Shown piece by piece: positions 1 through 6,294 of a stretch of 6,393 nt of DNA. Within the stretch, counting starts at the first letter, position 1, and each line of letters begins with the position of its first letter. The notes beneath the pieces are model-generated. The model was not told where the DNA came from and searched no databases. It saw only the letters and a list, made by a program, of their open reading frames with translations. The DNA comes from a virus (Duplodnaviria > Heunggongvirae > Uroviricota > Caudoviricetes): IMG/VR virus record IMGVR_UViG_2576861133_000006; one strand, 5' to 3'. The position numbers and the translations under genes are program-made.

Positions 1-268
1 CCACCCATGCCAGCGCCTTATCACGCTCAATGGCGTTAACCCGGTCGCATTTTTCCTTCGACAACTTCATGCCCGGAACGACAGGTTTGCCATCCACCAG
101 GATGGCACCGCGGCAGATGGTCCAGATACCCGCGCCATCACGGTATGCCGTGGTGTGGTTACCTTCCTTTTCATCCAGAAACTGGTCGAGAATGTCAGGC
201 GCAGGCGCACCAGCGGCAATCAGCGCCAGAACGGCAGCCGACAGGCCGTATCTGATTTTTGCGTTCAT
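1..268 (-). CDS. Phage endolysin, GH24 lysozyme family, with SAR-like N-terminus; 5' partial (first 89 codons, gene continues past window start)
   Basis: Minus-strand translation from ATG at 268..266: MNAKIRYGLSAAVLALIAAGAPAPDILDQFLDEKEGNHTTAYRDGAGIWTICRGAILVDGKPVVPGMKLSKEKCDRVNAIERDKALAWV. The weakly hydrophobic Ala/Gly/Leu-rich N-terminus followed by a lysozyme-like core is the pattern of signal-arrest-release endolysins. An in-frame stop lies 2 codons upstream (277..275), so 268 is the start. No obvious Shine-Dalgarno. Absent from the ORF track only because it runs off the window. Confidence 0.8.
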   Translation of the reverse strand, partial: MNAKIRYGLSAAVLALIAAGAPAPDILDQFLDEKEGNHTTAYRDGAGIWTICRGAILVDGKPVVPGMKLSKEKCDRVNAIERDKALAWV

Positions 269-373: not shown

Positions 374-646
374 ATGGACAATAACACCATTTCTCTACAG
401 GAGTTGCTCGACAGCATTTCCAGGCTTCGGGAAGACGTGAATACCCTTACCGTCGCCTTCTCATATCTGGCATTCTCAATTCCAAGGGAACAGATGCAAT
501 CAACGCTGGCATCAATCCAGTTTGAATCATGCAATCCCAAATGGTCTCAGGAACAACAAGACTCTTTCAGGCGGCTTGCTGTATTACTGGATGAAAAATA
601 TGCTGGTAAAATTACCATTTCGGCGGACTCTTCAGAGAACCCGTAA
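374..646 (+). CDS. Hypothetical protein, 90 aa, antisense to the lysis cassette
   Basis: ORF with ATG start and strong SD (GAGGA, 6-nt spacer). Product MDNNTISLQELLDSISRLREDVNTLTVAFSYLAFSIPREQ... has no recognisable motif. The 3' end overlaps the convergent DUF1327 gene by 35 bp (612-646). Chosen over the minus-strand 68-aa ORF 334..540, which starts with TTG and lacks an SD. Confidence 0.4.
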   Translation: MDNNTISLQELLDSISRLREDVNTLTVAFSYLAFSIPREQMQSTLASIQFESCNPKWSQEQQDSFRRLAVLLDEKYAGKITISADSSENP

Positions 647-1208
647 TTATTCCCGGTAGTTTTCCTCTGTAGGTTATCAACACATCCTGCGCCTCTAAAA
701 TTACGGGGCGCTTTTCCGGCGACTGCTCATCCCCTTCACATAACCCGGCAGCAACATCCAGGAAGACCTGTCTGATGCTCCTTCTGGCTGCTGCCTCATA
801 AAACTCCAGCGCGGCACCTTCAACACGGTCCAGCGAGATGTCCAGGTCAAAAATTTCACCGTCAAAGCGTTTTTTGTCCCGTAACGCTAAAGTTACCGTA
901 ACTTTATTCTCAAAATTGCGGATCCCTTTCACAATCAACTGCGCCTCTAAAATTACGGGGCGCTTTTCCGGCGACTGCTCATCCCCTTCACATAACCCGG
1001 CAGCAACATCCAGGAAGACCTGTCTGATGCTCCTTCTGGCTGCTGCCTCATAAAACTCCAGCGCGGCACCTTCAACACGGTCCAGCGAGATGTCCAGGTC
1101 AAAAATTTCACCGTCAAAGCGTTTTTTGTCCCGTAACGCTAAAGTTACCGTAACTTTATTCTCAAAATTGCGGATCCCTTTCACAATCAGTTCATAGTTT
1201 TGAGTCAT
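612..1208 (-). CDS. DUF1327/YdfR-like lysis-cassette protein carrying an in-frame tandem duplication (198 aa; about 114 aa without the duplication)
   Basis: ATG at 1208..1206 preceded by GGAGA SD, 4 nt after the pinholin stop. The N-terminus MTQNYELIVKGIRNFENKVTVT... resembles, from memory, E. coli Qin prophage YdfR (DUF1327), which likewise lies between holin and lysozyme. Residues 7-90 are repeated as 91-174. Confidence 0.65.
   Translation of the reverse strand: MTQNYELIVKGIRNFENKVTVTLALRDKKRFDGEIFDLDISLDRVEGAALEFYEAAARRSIRQVFLDVAAGLCEGDEQSPEKRPVILEAQLIVKGIRNFENKVTVTLALRDKKRFDGEIFDLDISLDRVEGAALEFYEAAARRSIRQVFLDVAAGLCEGDEQSPEKRPVILEAQDVLITYRGKLPGIITGSLKSPPKW
687..1190. repeat. Near-perfect tandem direct duplication, 2 x 252 bp (687-938 and 939-1190), in frame within the DUF1327 gene
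   Basis: Direct comparison of the two copies: 251 of 252 positions identical. The only difference is 938 (a) versus 1190 (g), a synonymous TTG/CTG Leu change. 252 is a multiple of 3, so the frame is preserved. Confidence 0.95.
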
Positions 1209-1212
1209 TGAA

Positions 1213-1428
1213 TTACTCTCCCCGTGCAGCCTTACGACGGTCCTCTCTGATTTTGAAATACAGGTTAGTCAGATATGTCAGCAGCCCAAACAGCAGACTC
1301 CCCAGCACGCCTATTGCCGCCCACTGAGACGGGGAAACCCTGTCCAGCAACTGCAGGAACCAGTAGCCCGTTCCCACCGCTGACGTGGTGTATGACACAC
1401 CTGTTGTGATTTTTTCCATCTGGTACAT
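1213..1428 (-). CDS. Class II holin, S21-type pinholin, with dual-start motif (71-aa form from 1428, 68-aa form from 1419)
   Basis: Translation [71 protein letters not shown]: two predicted TM segments and a charged C-terminus, closely resembling phage 21 S21 as I recall it. Two in-frame ATGs 3 codons apart (1428 and 1419). GGGAGA SD 6 nt upstream of 1428. The ORF-track start at 1506 is rejected because the upstream extension covers the terminator hairpin. Confidence 0.8.
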
Positions 1429-1460: not shown

Positions 1461-1493
1461 AATAAAAAAAGCCACCAGTTAAGTACTGATGGC
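1461..1493 (-). terminator. Rho-independent terminator between the esterase gene and the pinholin gene
   Basis: Minus-strand RNA: 8-bp stem GCCAUCAG/CUGGUGGC (one G.U pair), 7-nt loop UACUUAA, then UUUUUUUAUU. Plus-strand coordinates: stem 1471-1478 and 1486-1493, A-tract 1461-1470. Confidence 0.55.
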
Positions 1494-1578
1494 TCTGATA
1501 ACTCATGCAGGCATCTCAGACGACCCACTGACACTACCGGTGAGTTTAACGATACCTTCCATTTGACTGGCTCACTTT

Positions 1579-3450
1579 TTATGATGATGCCGGTGCATTT
1601 ATCTCCAGCACCAGACTTTCTATCTCAACGCCATACGTTGCATTTTTGGTAATATCCGTCAGCGTCAGCGCATTCAGCCCCAGTGTCAGACTGTCTTTTA
1701 TGACCTGGAATGCCGGGCCAGCCACTCCATTCAGTTTCGGAGTAACCGTGGCACTGCCGGCGGTGAACACCAGCTCCAGCGTCTGCCAGTCGTTACTGTA
1801 ATTCCCGAACTCGCCCAACTTTGTGTTTCCTGCTTTCCTGTGATGCATCAGATTCAGTTTGCCGTCTGTGGTCTGGGTGAAGAACGACATCAGGAACGGG
1901 TTACCAGTCCCGGTCATCGCCACGACGTCAGGTAACGCTACATCGGTACACAGATAAATTCCCAGACCGAACTGGTTGTTGGTCAGTGCGCCTGACAGTC
2001 GAAACTTACAGCTCAGTCTGCCACCCCGTGTCAGCAGGGAGACTGCGTCATCCACCGGATGCATCAGGGACCAAGTTTTATTGCTCTGCTTGGTAACCTT
2101 AAACACACCATCTTCCAGCGCAACACTGCCGCCGGTGATGGTCCAGCCCTGCGCAGCAGCCTCTCCGGCTGTCGGCAGCAGGGAGACTGTACGAACGGAT
2201 GTGTCACCATCAGACGGCCCCGATGGAGTGTCGCCGCCGGGCGAGGGTTTGATTTCCGGTGCCTTACCACTAATGAAGGCTAAGGTGCGACCGGCTACGT
2301 TCAGAATAGCAGTTGCCATACGATCGGGAATAATGCCACGACGCGCCCATGAGCTGAAATGCGTCGGGCGATTTGATGATACCCAGTTTTTGTTCGTTCG
2401 GGATGCCGAACCGTAATAACCAGACCCGGCAATATCAGGATCTTCTGACGGGTTGTTTGTCGGTGTATTAACTCCGCTACCATCGGTCATAAAGGGAACA
2501 AAATAAATCTGCTGGGATTCTTTACCTTTATATGCACCATATACCACTTCATATTGCGTACCGTGTTCTTGTTTCCACGCGTATGTCGTGTCGCCACAAA
2601 TCCAGGGGACTGATGCCGGACTTCCACCGTGACACTGCGCCGCCAGCCCGGCAAGGTCAGCACGGAACTGCTGTACCATTGCAAGAAATGCTGCTGGCTG
2701 CTGGGCGTAACTGGCATTCGTCATATCGAATTCCCCCTGCATCCAGCATATCGCCAGCAAAACGTTTTTCGGGTTTTTCTGCAATGCTGCCTTCGTGCGG
2801 AAAAGCAGATCCTGATATAACGGCTTACCCACTCCCCAGCGAGCCGAATCCTGACTGGCCCCCGTGGACTCGCTGAATGTCCCCTCCGTGCCCTGGGTGA
2901 ATGCCGAACCACCACGACAGCATGGTACCAGCAGGATCCCCGCATTATTAGGGATATACGGAAGCAGTTTTTTGGCAATATGTAAGCCCTGTCCGACACA
3001 GCCGTACTGCCCTTTGCTCAGGTCAGCCCGGGGATGGTTAATCGTACTCATATCCTGAACATCATGCAGACAATGGTCAGCAGGAATGATGTCGTTAAAT
3101 ACGCATACTTCACCACCGGGAGTCACTGTGTTACGACGGGCCAGTTGCTTAATGCGCGGATGGGGCGCATCGTATGAATCCGGAAGCGGAAGCCCTTCAC
3201 CGTAAGCCATGGCATTGGATTGCCCGGCCAGTACGATGACGTAGTACCACTCCGGCTCAGTTGCACCACTGACGACCACATCACCTTCTGCTGCAATCGC
3301 CTGCATCAGGGTATAAGGGGTTATGGCCACCGGACTACCAAACGGCTGCCAGCCCTCTTTCAGTTTATGTGTCAGCTTTTCCGCAAGATCTGACGGCGAC
3401 GCCGCCCTGACAACATCATAGTGTTTAAATGCCATGGTTCTTTCCACCAT
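1579..3450 (-). CDS. nanS: Prophage-type sialate O-acetylesterase (NanS-p-like): N-terminal DUF1737-like region, SASA esterase core, C-terminal beta-rich domain
   Basis: 623-aa ORF. N-terminus MAFKHYDVVRAASPSDLAEKLTHKLKEGWQPFGSPVAITPYTLMQ is DUF1737-like. It is followed by VIVLAGQSNAMAYG, a GDSL/SGNH-type GQSN catalytic-serine block typical of sialic-acid-specific acetylesterases. The position upstream of the lysis genes matches NanS-p of EHEC prophages. The start may instead be the ATG at 3435 (MAFKHY...), which has a slightly better upstream purine-rich tract. Confidence 0.75.
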   Translation of the reverse strand: MVERTMAFKHYDVVRAASPSDLAEKLTHKLKEGWQPFGSPVAITPYTLMQAIAAEGDVVVSGATEPEWYYVIVLAGQSNAMAYGEGLPLPDSYDAPHPRIKQLARRNTVTPGGEVCVFNDIIPADHCLHDVQDMSTINHPRADLSKGQYGCVGQGLHIAKKLLPYIPNNAGILLVPCCRGGSAFTQGTEGTFSESTGASQDSARWGVGKPLYQDLLFRTKAALQKNPKNVLLAICWMQGEFDMTNASYAQQPAAFLAMVQQFRADLAGLAAQCHGGSPASVPWICGDTTYAWKQEHGTQYEVVYGAYKGKESQQIYFVPFMTDGSGVNTPTNNPSEDPDIAGSGYYGSASRTNKNWVSSNRPTHFSSWARRGIIPDRMATAILNVAGRTLAFISGKAPEIKPSPGGDTPSGPSDGDTSVRTVSLLPTAGEAAAQGWTITGGSVALEDGVFKVTKQSNKTWSLMHPVDDAVSLLTRGGRLSCKFRLSGALTNNQFGLGIYLCTDVALPDVVAMTGTGNPFLMSFFTQTTDGKLNLMHHRKAGNTKLGEFGNYSNDWQTLELVFTAGSATVTPKLNGVAGPAFQVIKDSLTLGLNALTLTDITKNATYGVEIESLVLEINAPASS

Positions 3451-3628
3451 CTGAAAAATGATTCTTTAAAATACCTGACATGTAATACAGAAAAAACACA
3501 AAACCATACCTTAAATAAAAACCTCATCATCAAGCAGATATGCATGGATAAACTACAAGACGAGATATAAACCACCCTGCATTTAAATAAACAATAAACA
3601 ACATCAGAAAAATAATTCTGCTCTATGG

Positions 3629-3655
3629 TTTACAATCAAAAATATCATTTATACT
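3629..3655 (+). promoter_or_regulatory. Candidate sigma70-type promoter for the 111-aa ORF
   Basis: TTTACA (3629-3634), 15-bp spacer, TATACT (3650-3655), in a very AT-rich tract about 40 nt upstream of the ATG at 3696, which has an AAGGA SD. The spacer is shorter than optimal, so this is weak. Confidence 0.25.
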
Positions 3656-3695
3656 TTTCAGAACATCACCAGCAAGGCATAAACAAGGAAACTAA

Positions 3696-4031
3696 ATGAA
3701 GTGGATTGTGATTGATACAGTTATCCAGCCATCATGCGGAATATCTTTTTCAGTCATATGGAGTAAAATAAAATTAATAATCTGGTATCAATCGGATGCT
3801 TTCTTACCTCCTGAAAGTATATTTACACTGACTCACACAGGCATCATGCTCAATAACAAAGTGCTACCTGTAACCATTTACAACGTAGTACCATTCAATA
3901 AAACATTCTGGAATTTAATCAAAAACAGCCAGGAATGCCCTACAAATACAGATAACGTATTGAATGAATGCTTTAATAACCGTTGCACTCTGCAAATATG
4001 TCCTTATGGACTAAAACAACAAAGTCCATAA
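3696..4031 (+). CDS. Hypothetical protein, 111 aa, AT-rich cargo gene opposite to late transcription
   Basis: ATG with AAGGA SD 6 nt upstream. Very AT-rich coding sequence with six ATA codons. Product [32 protein letters not shown]... has four Cys in the last 31 residues and no recognisable motif. Confidence 0.35.
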
Positions 4032-4049: not shown

Positions 4050-4087
4050 ACAAAATCAATATAAACAGCCCCTCCGGAGAGGGGCTG
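4050..4087 (-). terminator. GC-rich hairpin followed by a U-rich tract on the minus strand (putative intrinsic terminator)
   Basis: 9-bp perfect stem CAGCCCCTC(4066-4074)/GAGGGGCTG(4079-4087) with loop CGGA. The minus-strand transcript continues UUUAUAUUGAUUUUGU; on the plus strand the hairpin is followed by GAGAGUGGCG, with no U-tract. It lies 35 nt past the stop of the 111-aa ORF. Confidence 0.4.
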
Positions 4088-4478
4088 GAGAGTGGCGCTA
4101 TGTGCCATTGCATGGTGCCGGGTGCCTCCCGGTGAATTCAGTACCAGCACCTGAATCCGCGATTATCCCATATACCTACTCGCTGATTGCCCCTCCGCAC
4201 AGGGGGATTCACCATGCCAGTTTCTTTTAACAAACTCCCCGCAAACCAGACAACAATCAACCGCCTGAATTGTGAAGTATTTAAAAATTTCTCCCGCTAA
4301 CTGATACCCGGCTAACAGTCTGGCGTTTTCTTTTTCAGCAACGGGAAAGCAACAACCACCACACCCGCCACCAGCACACCGTCAGCCAGCACTGACATTA
4401 TCCGGCTGCAGCAATGCCATTCACAAAAACAGTAAGCAATCACTTTTTACCGTAACCGGTGATAATCCAGATATGTAT

Positions 4479-4805
4479 CTACCCCAGATGAGTAATCCGA
4501 AGTTCATCCATACCACAGGTCCTGGCTATTCTGTTGTACTCCTGAACAAGAGTAAATAATTCTGAATTAGCCACCATGAACTCATCGCAAACCCTCTGTA
4601 TAGCATCACTATTCAGAATAATAACGTCTCTTCCCGAAAGACGATCAGGAGTACAGAACAAAACTGTCAAACGGCTGAAGGCCTTTGCTCGTGCTGCATT
4701 GACTATATCAATACGCTGCCTAAGGATGAAACACCCCGACGCCTCATCAATATTCACTCTACCCACACCATATGAATGATAAATATTTAATGCTGAAAAA
4801 ACCAT
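4479..4805 (-). CDS. Hypothetical protein, 108 aa from ATG at 4805 (118 aa if the GTG at 4835 is used)
   Basis: Minus-strand ORF in the cargo slot. Product MVFSALNIYHSYGVGRVNIDEASGCFILRQRIDIVNAARAKAFSRLTVLFCTPDRLSGRDVIILNSDAIQRVCDEFMVANSELFTLVQEYNRIARTCGMDELRITHLG. It contains 3 AGA, 3 AGG and 3 ATA codons. No convincing SD before either start and no recognised family. Confidence 0.4.
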   Translation of the reverse strand: MVFSALNIYHSYGVGRVNIDEASGCFILRQRIDIVNAARAKAFSRLTVLFCTPDRLSGRDVIILNSDAIQRVCDEFMVANSELFTLVQEYNRIARTCGMDELRITHLG

Positions 4806-4942
4806 TAGACCGTATAACAAACACTCAATCAACACTTAACAGAACTTTTATTTTTGACAAACATATAATATTTTCAACAATATCCTGAGCCAGGTATATT
4901 TCAGTATAAGGCTCTGCCGGAAGGAATCTGGAAGAATGAATA

Positions 4943-5019
4943 TGGCGCGCTGTACTGGATTCGAACCAGTGACCGATTGCTTAGAAGGCAATTGCTCTGT
5001 CCGGCTGAGCTAACAACGC
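4943..5019 (-). tRNA. tRNA-Arg, anticodon UCU, 77 nt (phage argO/argU-like)
   Basis: Minus-strand sequence GCGTTGTTAGCTCAGCCGGACAGAGCAATTGCCTTCTAAGCAATCGGTCACTGGTTCGAATCCAGTACAGCGCGCCA. Acceptor stem GCGTTGT/ACAGCGC (one G.U), D stem GCTC/GAGC, anticodon stem ATTGC/GCAAT with loop CTTCTAA, T arm ACTGG-TTCGAAT-CCAGT, encoded CCA. Confidence 0.9.
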
Positions 5020-5119
5020 TGAATACCGATAATGGACCGCCATCGGGGACCCGCCCCCGCACCAACAACCCTGTTATCGTGTCGTCTGCTCTTCCTGATA
5101 AGCTAATGGCGGTTTGTGA

Positions 5120-5195
5120 TGGTGGCCCTTGCTGGATTTGAACCAGCGACCTGGCGATTATGAGTCGCTCGCTCTCACCACTGAGCTAAAGGGCC
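5120..5195 (-). tRNA. tRNA with CAU anticodon, 76 nt; most likely tRNA-Ile2 (lysidine type, ileX/ileZ-like) rather than tRNA-Met
   Basis: Minus-strand sequence GGCCCTTTAGCTCAGTGGTGAGAGCGAGCGACTCATAATCGCCAGGTCGCTGGTTCAAATCCAGCAAGGGCCACCA. Perfect acceptor stem GGCCCTT/AAGGGCC, anticodon loop CTCATAA, T arm GCTGG-TTCAAAT-CCAGC, encoded CCA. Very close to E. coli ileX as I recall it. Confidence 0.9.
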
Positions 5196-5244
5196 GGGAG
5201 CAGAATAATAATGGTGCGTAATTAATTCTGCAATCTCATCCGTT

Positions 5245-6294
5245 TCAAACGATTAAACCCTGAACTTCCCTGACTGTCTGCTCAAAACGTCCGGTCTCCA
5301 GCTCAACGCCAATCGCACGACGCCCGAGCGCCAGTGCCGCTTTTACCGTTGAACCTGAGCCCATAAAAAAATCTGCAACCAGGTCACCCGGACGACTGCT
5401 TGCGCTGATTATCTGCTGCAGCATTTCTGCCGGTTTTTCGCACGGATGTTTCCCGGGATAGAACTGCACCGGTTTATGTGTCCACACATCCGTGTACGGC
5501 ACCTGCGCCGTCACACCAAAATACCGCCGCAGATGCTTATATTCACTCTGCAGCTCCACATACTGCCGGTTCAGTGACGTATACGTATCCACCAGCTGGT
5601 GGTGGGGCTTTTCCAGTTCACCGCGCTGATGTTTCTCTTCTGCCACCCGGGCAAACAGCGACTGTAATTTCAGATAATCGCTTTCGTTCGGTAGCTGCCA
5701 CTGACTGGCACTGAACCAGTGCGACACCATGTTTTTCTTTCCTGTGGCATCTGCAATCTGTTTTGCCGTTATCCCCAGGGCCGCGCGCGCATCACGAAAG
5801 TAAGAAATCAGCGGGGCCATCACATGCTGTTTCAGTGCACTGCCCTTCGCCGCATACCCGGCATCTTTCGGACGATACGGCCCCTGATAATGTTCCGCGA
5901 ACAGAATGCGCTCTGTGGCGGGGAAATACGCCCGCAGGCTTTCCTTGTTGCATCCGTTCCAGCGTCCGGACGGCTTCGCCCAGATAATATGGTTCAGCAC
6001 ACTGAAGCGTTCACGCATCATGATTTCGATATCAGATGCCAGGCGATGACCACAGAACAGGTAAAGACTTCCGGCAGGTTTCAGCACCCGCCAGAACTGC
6101 GCCAGACACTGGTCCAGCCACTTCAGGTAATCATCGTCGCCCTTCCACTGGTTATCCCAGCCCTCAGGCTTCACTTTAAAGTACGGCGGGTCCGTGACTA
6201 TCAGGTCAACAGAATTTTCGGGTAACGACCGGATAAATTCCAGGCAGTCGGCGTTGATTAACTCACAACTGGATATTTTTACAGTATTAGCCAT
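5245..6294 (-). CDS. DNA methyltransferase, beta-class amino-MTase (N6-adenine or N4-cytosine), 349 aa
   Basis: DPPY catalytic motif near the N-terminus (LIVTDPPYF) and FxGxG SAM-binding motif near the C-terminus (DFFMGSGST). The order motif IV then motif I defines the beta class. In-frame stops immediately upstream of the ATG at 6294 fix the start. No restriction endonuclease partner is present in the window. Confidence 0.85.
   Translation of the reverse strand: MANTVKISSCELINADCLEFIRSLPENSVDLIVTDPPYFKVKPEGWDNQWKGDDDYLKWLDQCLAQFWRVLKPAGSLYLFCGHRLASDIEIMMRERFSVLNHIIWAKPSGRWNGCNKESLRAYFPATERILFAEHYQGPYRPKDAGYAAKGSALKQHVMAPLISYFRDARAALGITAKQIADATGKKNMVSHWFSASQWQLPNESDYLKLQSLFARVAEEKHQRGELEKPHHQLVDTYTSLNRQYVELQSEYKHLRRYFGVTAQVPYTDVWTHKPVQFYPGKHPCEKPAEMLQQIISASSRPGDLVADFFMGSGSTVKAALALGRRAIGVELETGRFEQTVREVQGLIV

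Follow-up and report, generated by a model that had tools for sequence, protein, structure and literature searches.

A NanS-p-type esterase gene in the late region of a lambdoid Escherichia coli prophage, and the possible pairing of its DUF1737 domain with phage head type

Introduction

Why should a lambdoid prophage carry a complete gene for a sialate O-acetylesterase when no toxin gene lies beside it? The question is raised by nanS-p, which encodes a NanS-p-type esterase and occupies positions 1579-3450 of a 6,393-nucleotide stretch of viral DNA (IMG/VR record IMGVR_UViG_2576861133_000006, Caudoviricetes); the whole of this stretch is referred to here as the window. A preliminary description of the same DNA had suggested that the esterase may be the conserved anchor of a moron slot with a variable upstream payload, and had pointed out its retention without an adjacent toxin.

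Published work already covers the gene family with its esterase activity and its occurrence outside Shiga toxin (Stx) phages, as well as the allele found in sequence type 131 (ST131) of Escherichia coli (EC958_1546, PMC5425062). From the data below we consider it likely that the window encodes an intact NanS-p-type sialate 9-O-acetylesterase, an allele of EC958_1546, which would be a late gene with a Ser-His mechanism and a putative capsid-docking DUF1737 domain, and for which the absence of a toxin is ordinary. The coupling between DUF1737 type and head type, which extends a structural result from a 2026 preprint, may be the sole novel element.

Results

The esterase gene and its product

On the minus strand, positions 3450 to 1579 form an uninterrupted open reading frame (ORF) of 623 residues. 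The true start is probably the second ATG, at 3435, and not the one at 3450. Translation from the ATG at 3435, in front of which stands GGTGGAAAG, begins with MAFKHYDV, as in all homologues and in the 617-residue RefSeq product of the near-identical allele in EC958 and TO217. The coding sequence and its domains, in the 618-residue numbering, are as follows.

1579-3435, minus strand: nanS-p coding sequence, 618 residues plus stop, from the conserved ATG at 3435
3271-3435, minus strand: N-terminal DUF1737, residues 1-55, loop type A 'GSPVAITPYTLMQ'
2296-3261, minus strand: NanS-like SASA/SGNH esterase domain, residues 59-380
1582-2175, minus strand: C-terminal DUF6645, lectin-like jelly-roll, residues 421-618

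Pfam searches with the 623-residue ORF gave three matches, all exceeding the curated cut-offs: DUF1737 (PF08410) at residues 8-55 (E=4.6e-16), SASA (PF03629) at residues 71-267 (E=1.5e-12) and DUF6645 (PF20350) at residues 473-583 (E=3.8e-19). The first two domains, with GQSN at residues 76-79 in the same numbering, had been proposed from the letters alone and are confirmed, and the third, unmentioned before, is added here. Still in the numbering of the longer ORF, the solved structure of NanS (YjhS; 3PT5) matches residues 64-384 (E=4.9e-122) and the solved NanS-p C-terminal domain (6YP6), crystallised from the phi24B homologue vb_24B_21, matches residues 427-619 (E=2.3e-31). The three-domain NanS-p architecture of DUF1737, SASA and a lectin-like C-terminus is thus present in the window protein; NCBIfam held no model for the esterase. 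The protein shows 84-87% identity to NanS-p from Stx1a phages (H-19B group) and from Stx2 phage 86, and 53% to vb_24B_21 from phi24B; together with the two structural matches these values uphold the earlier assignment to the NanS-p type.

Counted from the ATG at 3435, GQSN begins at residue 71, RGGSAF at 174, QGEFD at 233 and RPTHF at 356, and all four NanS-type blocks are present (GQSNA, RGGSAF, MQGEFD and RPTHFS). Ser73 lies in GQSN (codon 3217-3219) and His359 in RPTHF (codon 2359-2361). The corresponding motifs of NanS in 3PT5 are GQSNA, RGGSAF, MQGEFD and R-S-SHFS, with R-x-x-H instead of D-x-x-H, and a main-chain oxygen acts as the acid in place of Asp. Block IV of NanS-p proteins reads RSSH, RASH or RPTH, the last having been reported for the protein of Stx2 phage 86 (PMC10462455). 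A check for a Ser-His-Asp triad had been suggested for this protein; the Ser and the His are found, while the Asp part of the test is inapplicable to the NanS family. No catalytic Asp is expected because this family works with Ser and His alone, and the triad was dropped as a criterion on account of the R-x-x-H arrangement of the prototype NanS. All tested NanS-p proteins of EDL933 and O104:H4 are active esterases (PMC8065619).

Late gene or independent cassette

The gene lies between the Q/tRNA region and the holin gene S, 150 nt upstream of a P21-type holin, which agrees with the position upstream of the lysis genes given in the preliminary description. Its guanine-plus-cytosine (GC) content of 0.48-0.59 is like that of the neighbouring phage genes, as against 0.31-0.35 in the oppositely oriented iraM gene further upstream. 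A consensus scan, which is weak evidence, detected no sigma-70-like promoter on the minus strand in 3436-3700, between iraM and the nanS-p start; in total it returned 6 promoter-like sites where 6.2 were expected, that is, chance level. The features by which a moron is recognised (a promoter and terminator of its own and a divergent base composition) are therefore not those of nanS-p, although a hairpin is present downstream. For EC958_1546, a phenotype was obtained only after a promoter had been inserted upstream, and deletion changed nothing (PMC5425062), and in Stx2a phages NanS-p is expressed late, together with stx, on induction (PMC10462455). The base composition, the promoter scan and the promoter requirement in EC958 thus speak for a late gene rather than for a cassette with expression of its own.

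DUF1737 type and head module

According to a 2026 electron cryomicroscopy preprint, gp84 of phi24B (its NanS-p) is a virion protein that decorates the capsid through DUF1737, which as a hexamer binds the hexon at the centre of every T=9 capsid face by way of a loop bearing Tyr42. The catalytic and lectin domains of gp84 are apparently cleaved off, and an SSP linker is the proposed self-cleavage site. We fetched about 190 loci and typed them by DUF1737 and by head module; for the latter, large ORFs at a distance of 4-10 kb downstream of nanS-p were used. Four head modules were distinguished: H1, lambda-like; H2, Phi4 type; H3, with a ClpP-capsid fusion protein; and H4, phi24B podovirus type. 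The pairing test comprised 74 informative loci, equal to 67 unique haplotypes, and the loci were distributed as follows.

Type A, loop 'GSPVAITPYTLMQ', the type of the window: H1 39, H2 15, H3 2, H4 0
Type B, loop 'GSALISTAGYGAEF', the phi24B type with Tyr42 in the loop: H1 0, H2 1, H3 0, H4 9
Type C, loop 'GGPFSSYTDDGAAL': H1 0, H2 0, H3 9, H4 0
Fourth N-terminal group: not DUF1737

Among unique haplotypes, 8 of the 9 with type B had the podovirus head, all 8 with type C had H3, and 47 of the 49 with type A had H1 or H2; the podovirus head was seen with type A in none of 56 loci. Esterase and C-terminal alleles at least 95% identical to one another were found with all three DUF1737 types and with all four heads. 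The adjusted mutual information with head type was 0.60 for DUF1737 (0.74 when H1 and H2 were merged), compared with 0.16 for the esterase domain, 0.19 for the C-terminal domain, about 0 for the holin, 0.08 for the lysozyme and 0.24-0.27 for Rz; for the upstream region it was at most 0.12 for gene presence or absence and 0.17-0.28 for 300-bp sequence blocks. The association of DUF1737 with the head was significant in a permutation test (p <5e-4) and in Fisher tests (1e-9 to 9e-13). A strict one-to-one pairing was rejected, as type A is found with H1, H2, an HK97-type head and, rarely, H3, and one locus (L174) combines type B with H2.

With a sliding window of 90 nt, the association peaked at gene nucleotides 46-180, fell to 0.15-0.25 within about 300 nt and was about zero over most of the holin and lysozyme genes. 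An island of about 150 nt (nanS-p codons 16-66) thus tracks a head-gene module 4-6 kb downstream, and DUF1737 is the part of nanS-p most distant from the head genes. Simple linkage fails to explain the pairing because the DNA between DUF1737 and the head genes is shuffled, and this shuffling points to functional coupling as the explanation.

The head genes that belong to the window lie outside it; window 1-937 matches TO217 at 100% identity, which suggests an H2 head. The nearest full-length relatives, the prophages of TO217 and EC958 (Phi4), encode a 553-residue TerL, a fused protease-capsid protein and siphovirus tail genes, and hence carry a siphovirus-type head module and not the T=9 podovirus head of phi24B and 933W.

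A set of IMG/VR loci (L165, L168, L169 and L193-L197) encodes NanS-p variants of 679-680 residues with a non-DUF1737 N-terminus; they start with an unrelated domain of about 110 residues that begins 'MTSKWVQLSSMPGNF', and their contigs stop before the head genes.

Loss of the esterase and persistence of the DUF1737 stub

In the isolated phage vB_EcoS-640R1 about 1.5 kb is missing from within nanS-p, and a 67-residue DUF1737 ORF and a C-terminal fragment are left. The deletion allele, at 5052-5413 of locus L003 (vB_EcoS-640R1) and 11001-11362 of locus L201 (E. coli M217), lacks the equivalent of window positions of about 1721-3216, and in M217 it belongs to a prophage with a classic HK97-type head. 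The same junction was found in 850 of 5,426 complete E. coli genomes (16%), with an intact 67-residue type A DUF1737 ORF kept. The esterase is therefore not a fixed anchor, contrary to what had been proposed for this site, since the allele in these 850 genomes keeps only the DUF1737 stub; the parts of the slot that persist most reliably are the stub and the lysis cassette.

Toxin absence, prevalence and variable payload

The related IMG/VR loci were picked by NanS-p similarity, and the counts made on them describe carriers of the gene and not an unbiased sample. Within 4.5 kb upstream, 110 loci had enough sequence, of which 21 carried stx, 39 iraM, 63 the methylase and 22 the 118-residue ORF described below; directly downstream of nanS-p the holin was found in 150 of 161. 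Of 5,426 complete E. coli genomes, 2,234 matched nanS-p, at 7,603 places in total and as many as 14 in a single genome. Seven to ten prophage NanS-p copies are recorded for EDL933 and five for O104:H4 (PMC8065619), the presence of copies in non-Stx prophages has already been stated (PMC10462455), and a 2026 preprint gives less than 3% as the share of chromosomal 'esterase-PasA-holin' units that adjoin stx. The toxin-less state is the usual configuration of this slot and nothing special, and the earlier emphasis on retention without a toxin can be given up in view of these counts and publications.

The claim that the upstream payload varies is, on the other hand, well founded. The Stx2a phage Stx2_EH2246 has the same methylase, tRNAs, iraM and nanS-p, and carries stx2AB between the tRNAs and iraM, an interval that in the window holds the 118-residue ORF, DUF3927 and a small RNA. 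In another phage the stretch from methylase to nanS-p is occupied by TerB-like, regulator and plasmid-stabilisation genes, with tRNAs and iraM not annotated. The differing cargo of these phages shows that the payload upstream of nanS-p varies.

Neighbouring genes in the window

Within a lambdoid E. coli prophage the window spans the part from late regulation to lysis, and it is read on the minus strand. Along transcription the order is methyltransferase, two tRNAs, 118-residue ORF, DUF3927, small RNA, iraM (on the opposite strand), nanS-p, holin, ydfR and endolysin.

5245-6294, minus strand: DNA methyltransferase (N6/N4), downstream of the Q antiterminator, which is outside the window
5120-5195, minus strand: tRNA with CAT anticodon, annotated as tRNA-Ile in RefSeq
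4943-5019, minus strand: tRNA-Arg, anticodon TCT
4479-4835, minus strand: predicted ORF of 118 residues with no functional assignment, matching phrog_2873 (E=1e-69)
4312-4443, minus strand: DUF3927 small membrane peptide, TciB-like phrog
4057-4246, minus strand: prophage small RNA of STnc100/PasD type, terminator hairpin at 4066-4087
3696-4031, plus strand: anti-adaptor paralogue of the IraM family (162 bits in NCBIfam, cut-off 121)
1429-1578: spacer of 150 nt between nanS-p and holin, 96.7-100% conserved in 75 fetched loci
1468-1496, minus strand: strong 12-bp hairpin with U-tract, within this spacer
1213-1428, minus strand: class II (P21-type) holin S of 71 residues, PF04971 (E=2.3e-32)
612-1208, minus strand: ydfR (DUF1327) with an internal tandem duplication
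1-268, minus strand: 5' part of the endolysin (lysozyme) gene, cut at the window edge

The TO217 prophage matches the whole window at 99.3-100% DNA identity, and so does prophage Phi4 of the ST131 strain EC958. In both, the Q antiterminator is just upstream of the equivalent region, and siphovirus head and tail genes follow downstream. At least 80% of the window is carried by 582 of the 5,426 complete E. coli genomes. The gene order is the same in EC958 Phi4, TO217 and enteropathogenic E. coli (EPEC) E2348/69.

The neighbours had been taken for unknown cargo, a view that for the most part no longer holds now that two tRNAs, a DUF3927 peptide, a small RNA of STnc100/PasD type and a paralogue of IraM are identified. 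The iraM gene lies in an AT-rich island (GC 0.31-0.35) and runs opposite to the late genes; a protein identical to its product (WP_000871291.1) is present in EC958, TO217 and EPEC E2348/69. It has the character of a classic moron and could stabilise RpoS. The small RNA scored 132 bits with the Rfam STnc100 model (gathering score 47) and is 99.5% identical to sequence upstream of the esterase in E2348/69, where a 2026 preprint describes a PasD2-type small RNA. The RefSeq annotations of EC958 and TO217 place a pseudo-CDS on the opposite strand inside the small-RNA region (equivalent to window 4102-4227), which is probably spurious. The 118-residue ORF is absent from these same two annotations. 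For the hairpin in the nanS-p/holin spacer there are two readings, a terminator or a small RNA's 3' end. Descriptions of the PasA and PasC small RNAs put them between esterase and holin genes, where this spacer lies; identity of the spacer with PasA or PasC could not be confirmed, and E2348/69 carries insertion sequence (IS) elements at that position. For the holin, the 97-residue ORF listed by the program (end at 1506) overextends the 5' end.

An exact in-frame tandem duplication of 252 bp (687-937 and 939-1189) gives a YdfR of 198 residues compared with the usual 114. The duplication junction occurred in none of 199 fetched loci, and among the best hits in the 5,426 complete E. coli genomes there was no single-piece match; the duplication is either a rare recent event or an assembly artefact.

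In a PADLOC search the sole match was the methylase, and the esterase, iraM, the 118-residue ORF, DUF3927 and ydfR gave none; a defence-system role for the esterase was dropped on this result.

Discussion

From its homologues and from the gene order, nanS-p would be transcribed with the late genes after induction, in a Q-dependent manner. The SGNH-type domain is predicted to remove the 9-O-acetyl group from Neu5,9Ac2 in mucin glycans by hydrolysis, with Ser73 as the putative nucleophile, His359 as the putative base and, as in NanS, no Asp. The C-terminal jelly-roll domain would target carbohydrate, and the N-terminal DUF1737 would be a capsid-docking module that places the enzyme on or near the virion. 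We propose that nanS-p persists because it is part of the late and structural programme, and not as the anchor of a moron site.

It is tempting to go one step further and regard the first 60 residues or so (DUF1737) as a capsid anchor matched to the head type, and nanS-p as a modular enzyme-on-capsid gene instead of a moron; judged from the sequence pairings, we would give this a little less than an even chance, and docking of the window's own allele to a capsid is likewise a tentative suggestion. On such a reading type A may dock siphovirus HK97-fold capsids, and the anchor role may account for the DUF1737-only stub in 16% of complete E. coli genomes.

The DUF1737 of the window has 59% BLAST identity to residues 1-56 of phi24B (47% with gaps counted). 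Several points weigh against this interpretation. The anchor Tyr42 of phi24B is not conserved in register: it aligns to a gap in the window loop, which is three residues shorter, while a Tyr is found at position 41 in 'ITPYTL'. The SSP/SISSP cleavage-site linker is absent from the window linker 'EGDVVVSGATEPE'. Type A spans at least three unrelated heads (H1, H2 and, in the stub allele, the HK97 type), which is a poor fit to a tightly co-adapted anchor. The pairing has exceptions (L174, L081 and L150), and the loci in the pairing test are not phylogenetically independent. Moreover, activity, expression timing and virion association of the window allele are predictions from homologues, and the sole reported phenotype of EC958_1546 is an unexplained hyper-motility on overexpression, deletion being without effect (PMC5425062).

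If nanS-p is a gene for the phage, its main use may be display on the capsid for sticking to or passing through mucus, or de-O-acetylation of surface glycans for adsorption, with any host benefit as a by-product. This is possible, and we advance it with reserve: phi24B gp84 decorates the capsid and the authors of the electron cryomicroscopy preprint propose mucus targeting, a role in receptor access has also been proposed (PMC8065619), DUF1737 type co-varies with head type and the gene is placed in the late operon; yet the catalytic and lectin domains of phi24B are cleaved, so that on the capsid DUF1737 alone is visible, the isolated phage 640R1 does without the esterase altogether, and the phi24B precedent concerns a podovirus head when the head next to the window's allele is of siphovirus type. 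It is rather doubtful, in our view, that nanS-p is a lysogenic-conversion moron which lets the host grow on O-acetylated sialic acid and forms the conserved anchor of a variable cargo slot. The GC content of nanS-p is that of the neighbouring phage genes, unlike the iraM island, its strand has no sigma-70-like promoter between iraM and the start in the scan, the EC958 phenotype needed an inserted promoter and deletion had no effect, 850 of 5,426 genomes carry the slot with the esterase body lost, and the phi24B homologue was found in a virion. These observations stand against the growth of lysogens on Neu5,9Ac2 that NanS-p alleles support (PMC8065619), the varying upstream payload (stx, iraM, TerB-like genes, small RNAs) and the hairpin and U-tract that follow the gene.

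Overexpression of EC958_1546 raises flhD and fliC transcription and caused hyper-motility in three uropathogenic strains, which three paralogues did not (PMC5425062), and nanS-p might for this reason be seen as a host motility regulator and not as a physiologically important esterase. We consider this unlikely, as the effect requires artificial overexpression and has no counterpart in a deletion phenotype, all catalytic motifs are conserved in the window protein and the Pfam search found no DNA- or RNA-binding domain in it. Alleles with deletions or disrupted by IS elements are common, as would suit a gene that has lost its function and is decaying in a cryptic prophage; with a full-length ORF in which every motif is intact, an esterase domain 100% identical to alleles in many genomes and intact lysis genes on the flanks, such decay is most improbable for the window's copy.

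The reading of nanS-p as a late gene carries a caution: a gene located between Q and S need not be toxin-like cargo. If its DUF1737 anchor is indeed matched to the head, NanS-p would serve as a model of the way in which temperate phages equip their capsids with exchangeable enzymes, and a benefit in the gut may go to the virion, through mucus targeting, as much as to the lysogen.

Comparison with known NanS-p systems

Single-domain NanS homologues that lack DUF1737 were seen in a GTDB set (L089, L090, L095 and L098) in Proteus faecis, Edwardsiella hoshinae and a Bacillota metagenome-assembled genome, and the same set includes a SASA domain within a 1,714-residue Leptothrix protein. The chromosomal NanS of E. 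coli (YjhS, 3PT5, nanCMS operon) has the same catalytic fold as the window protein and shares GQSNA, RGGSAF, QGEFD and R-x-x-H with it, but is a single domain of 326 residues, with neither DUF1737 nor a lectin-like domain, and is not prophage-encoded. The window protein, with 618 residues and two extra domains and located in a prophage, is not of this chromosomal type.

The NanS-p of Stx phages (L0105/z1466 of 933W and vb_24B_21, that is gp84, of phi24B) have the same three domains, the same NanS-type blocks and the same placement between the stx/tRNA region and the holin. Taken by domain, phi24B and the window are 47% identical in DUF1737, 70% in the esterase and 34% in the C-terminal domain, the most divergent part. 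The window's DUF1737 loop differs by its shorter length and the lack of Tyr42 in register, as noted above, and its linker is 11 residues shorter than the 'EGSISSPEEPGNRPTTSAPSVAPE' of phi24B. Of the four aromatic residues in the proposed sugar site of phi24B, three are conserved or conservatively replaced in the window (Y510F, Y515Y, Y540F) and one is not (F611L). Phi24B and 933W have a T=9 podovirus head and a toxin alongside, whereas the heads associated with the window's allele are of siphovirus type and no toxin is adjacent. Stx2 phage 86 is closer in its esterase and C-terminal domains, which are 92-95% identical to those of the window and share the RPTH form of block IV, but it has a phi24B-type DUF1737, matching its podovirus head, where the window has type A.

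The closest known system is EC958_1546 (WP_016230612.1, 617 residues) of the ST131 prophage Phi4, which has the same flanking genes in the same order. It is identical to the window protein through DUF1737 and the esterase domain, over about the first 395 residues, and differs from there on (90-93% identity; 93% in the C-terminal domain); the window additionally carries the duplicated ydfR. The linker and C-terminal part of the window gene (1582-2295) is 99% identical to other prophage alleles, including one from Escherichia albertii (L087). Since its C-terminus is closer to these other prophages than to EC958_1546, nanS-p of the window can be described as a recombinant, mosaic allele of EC958_1546.

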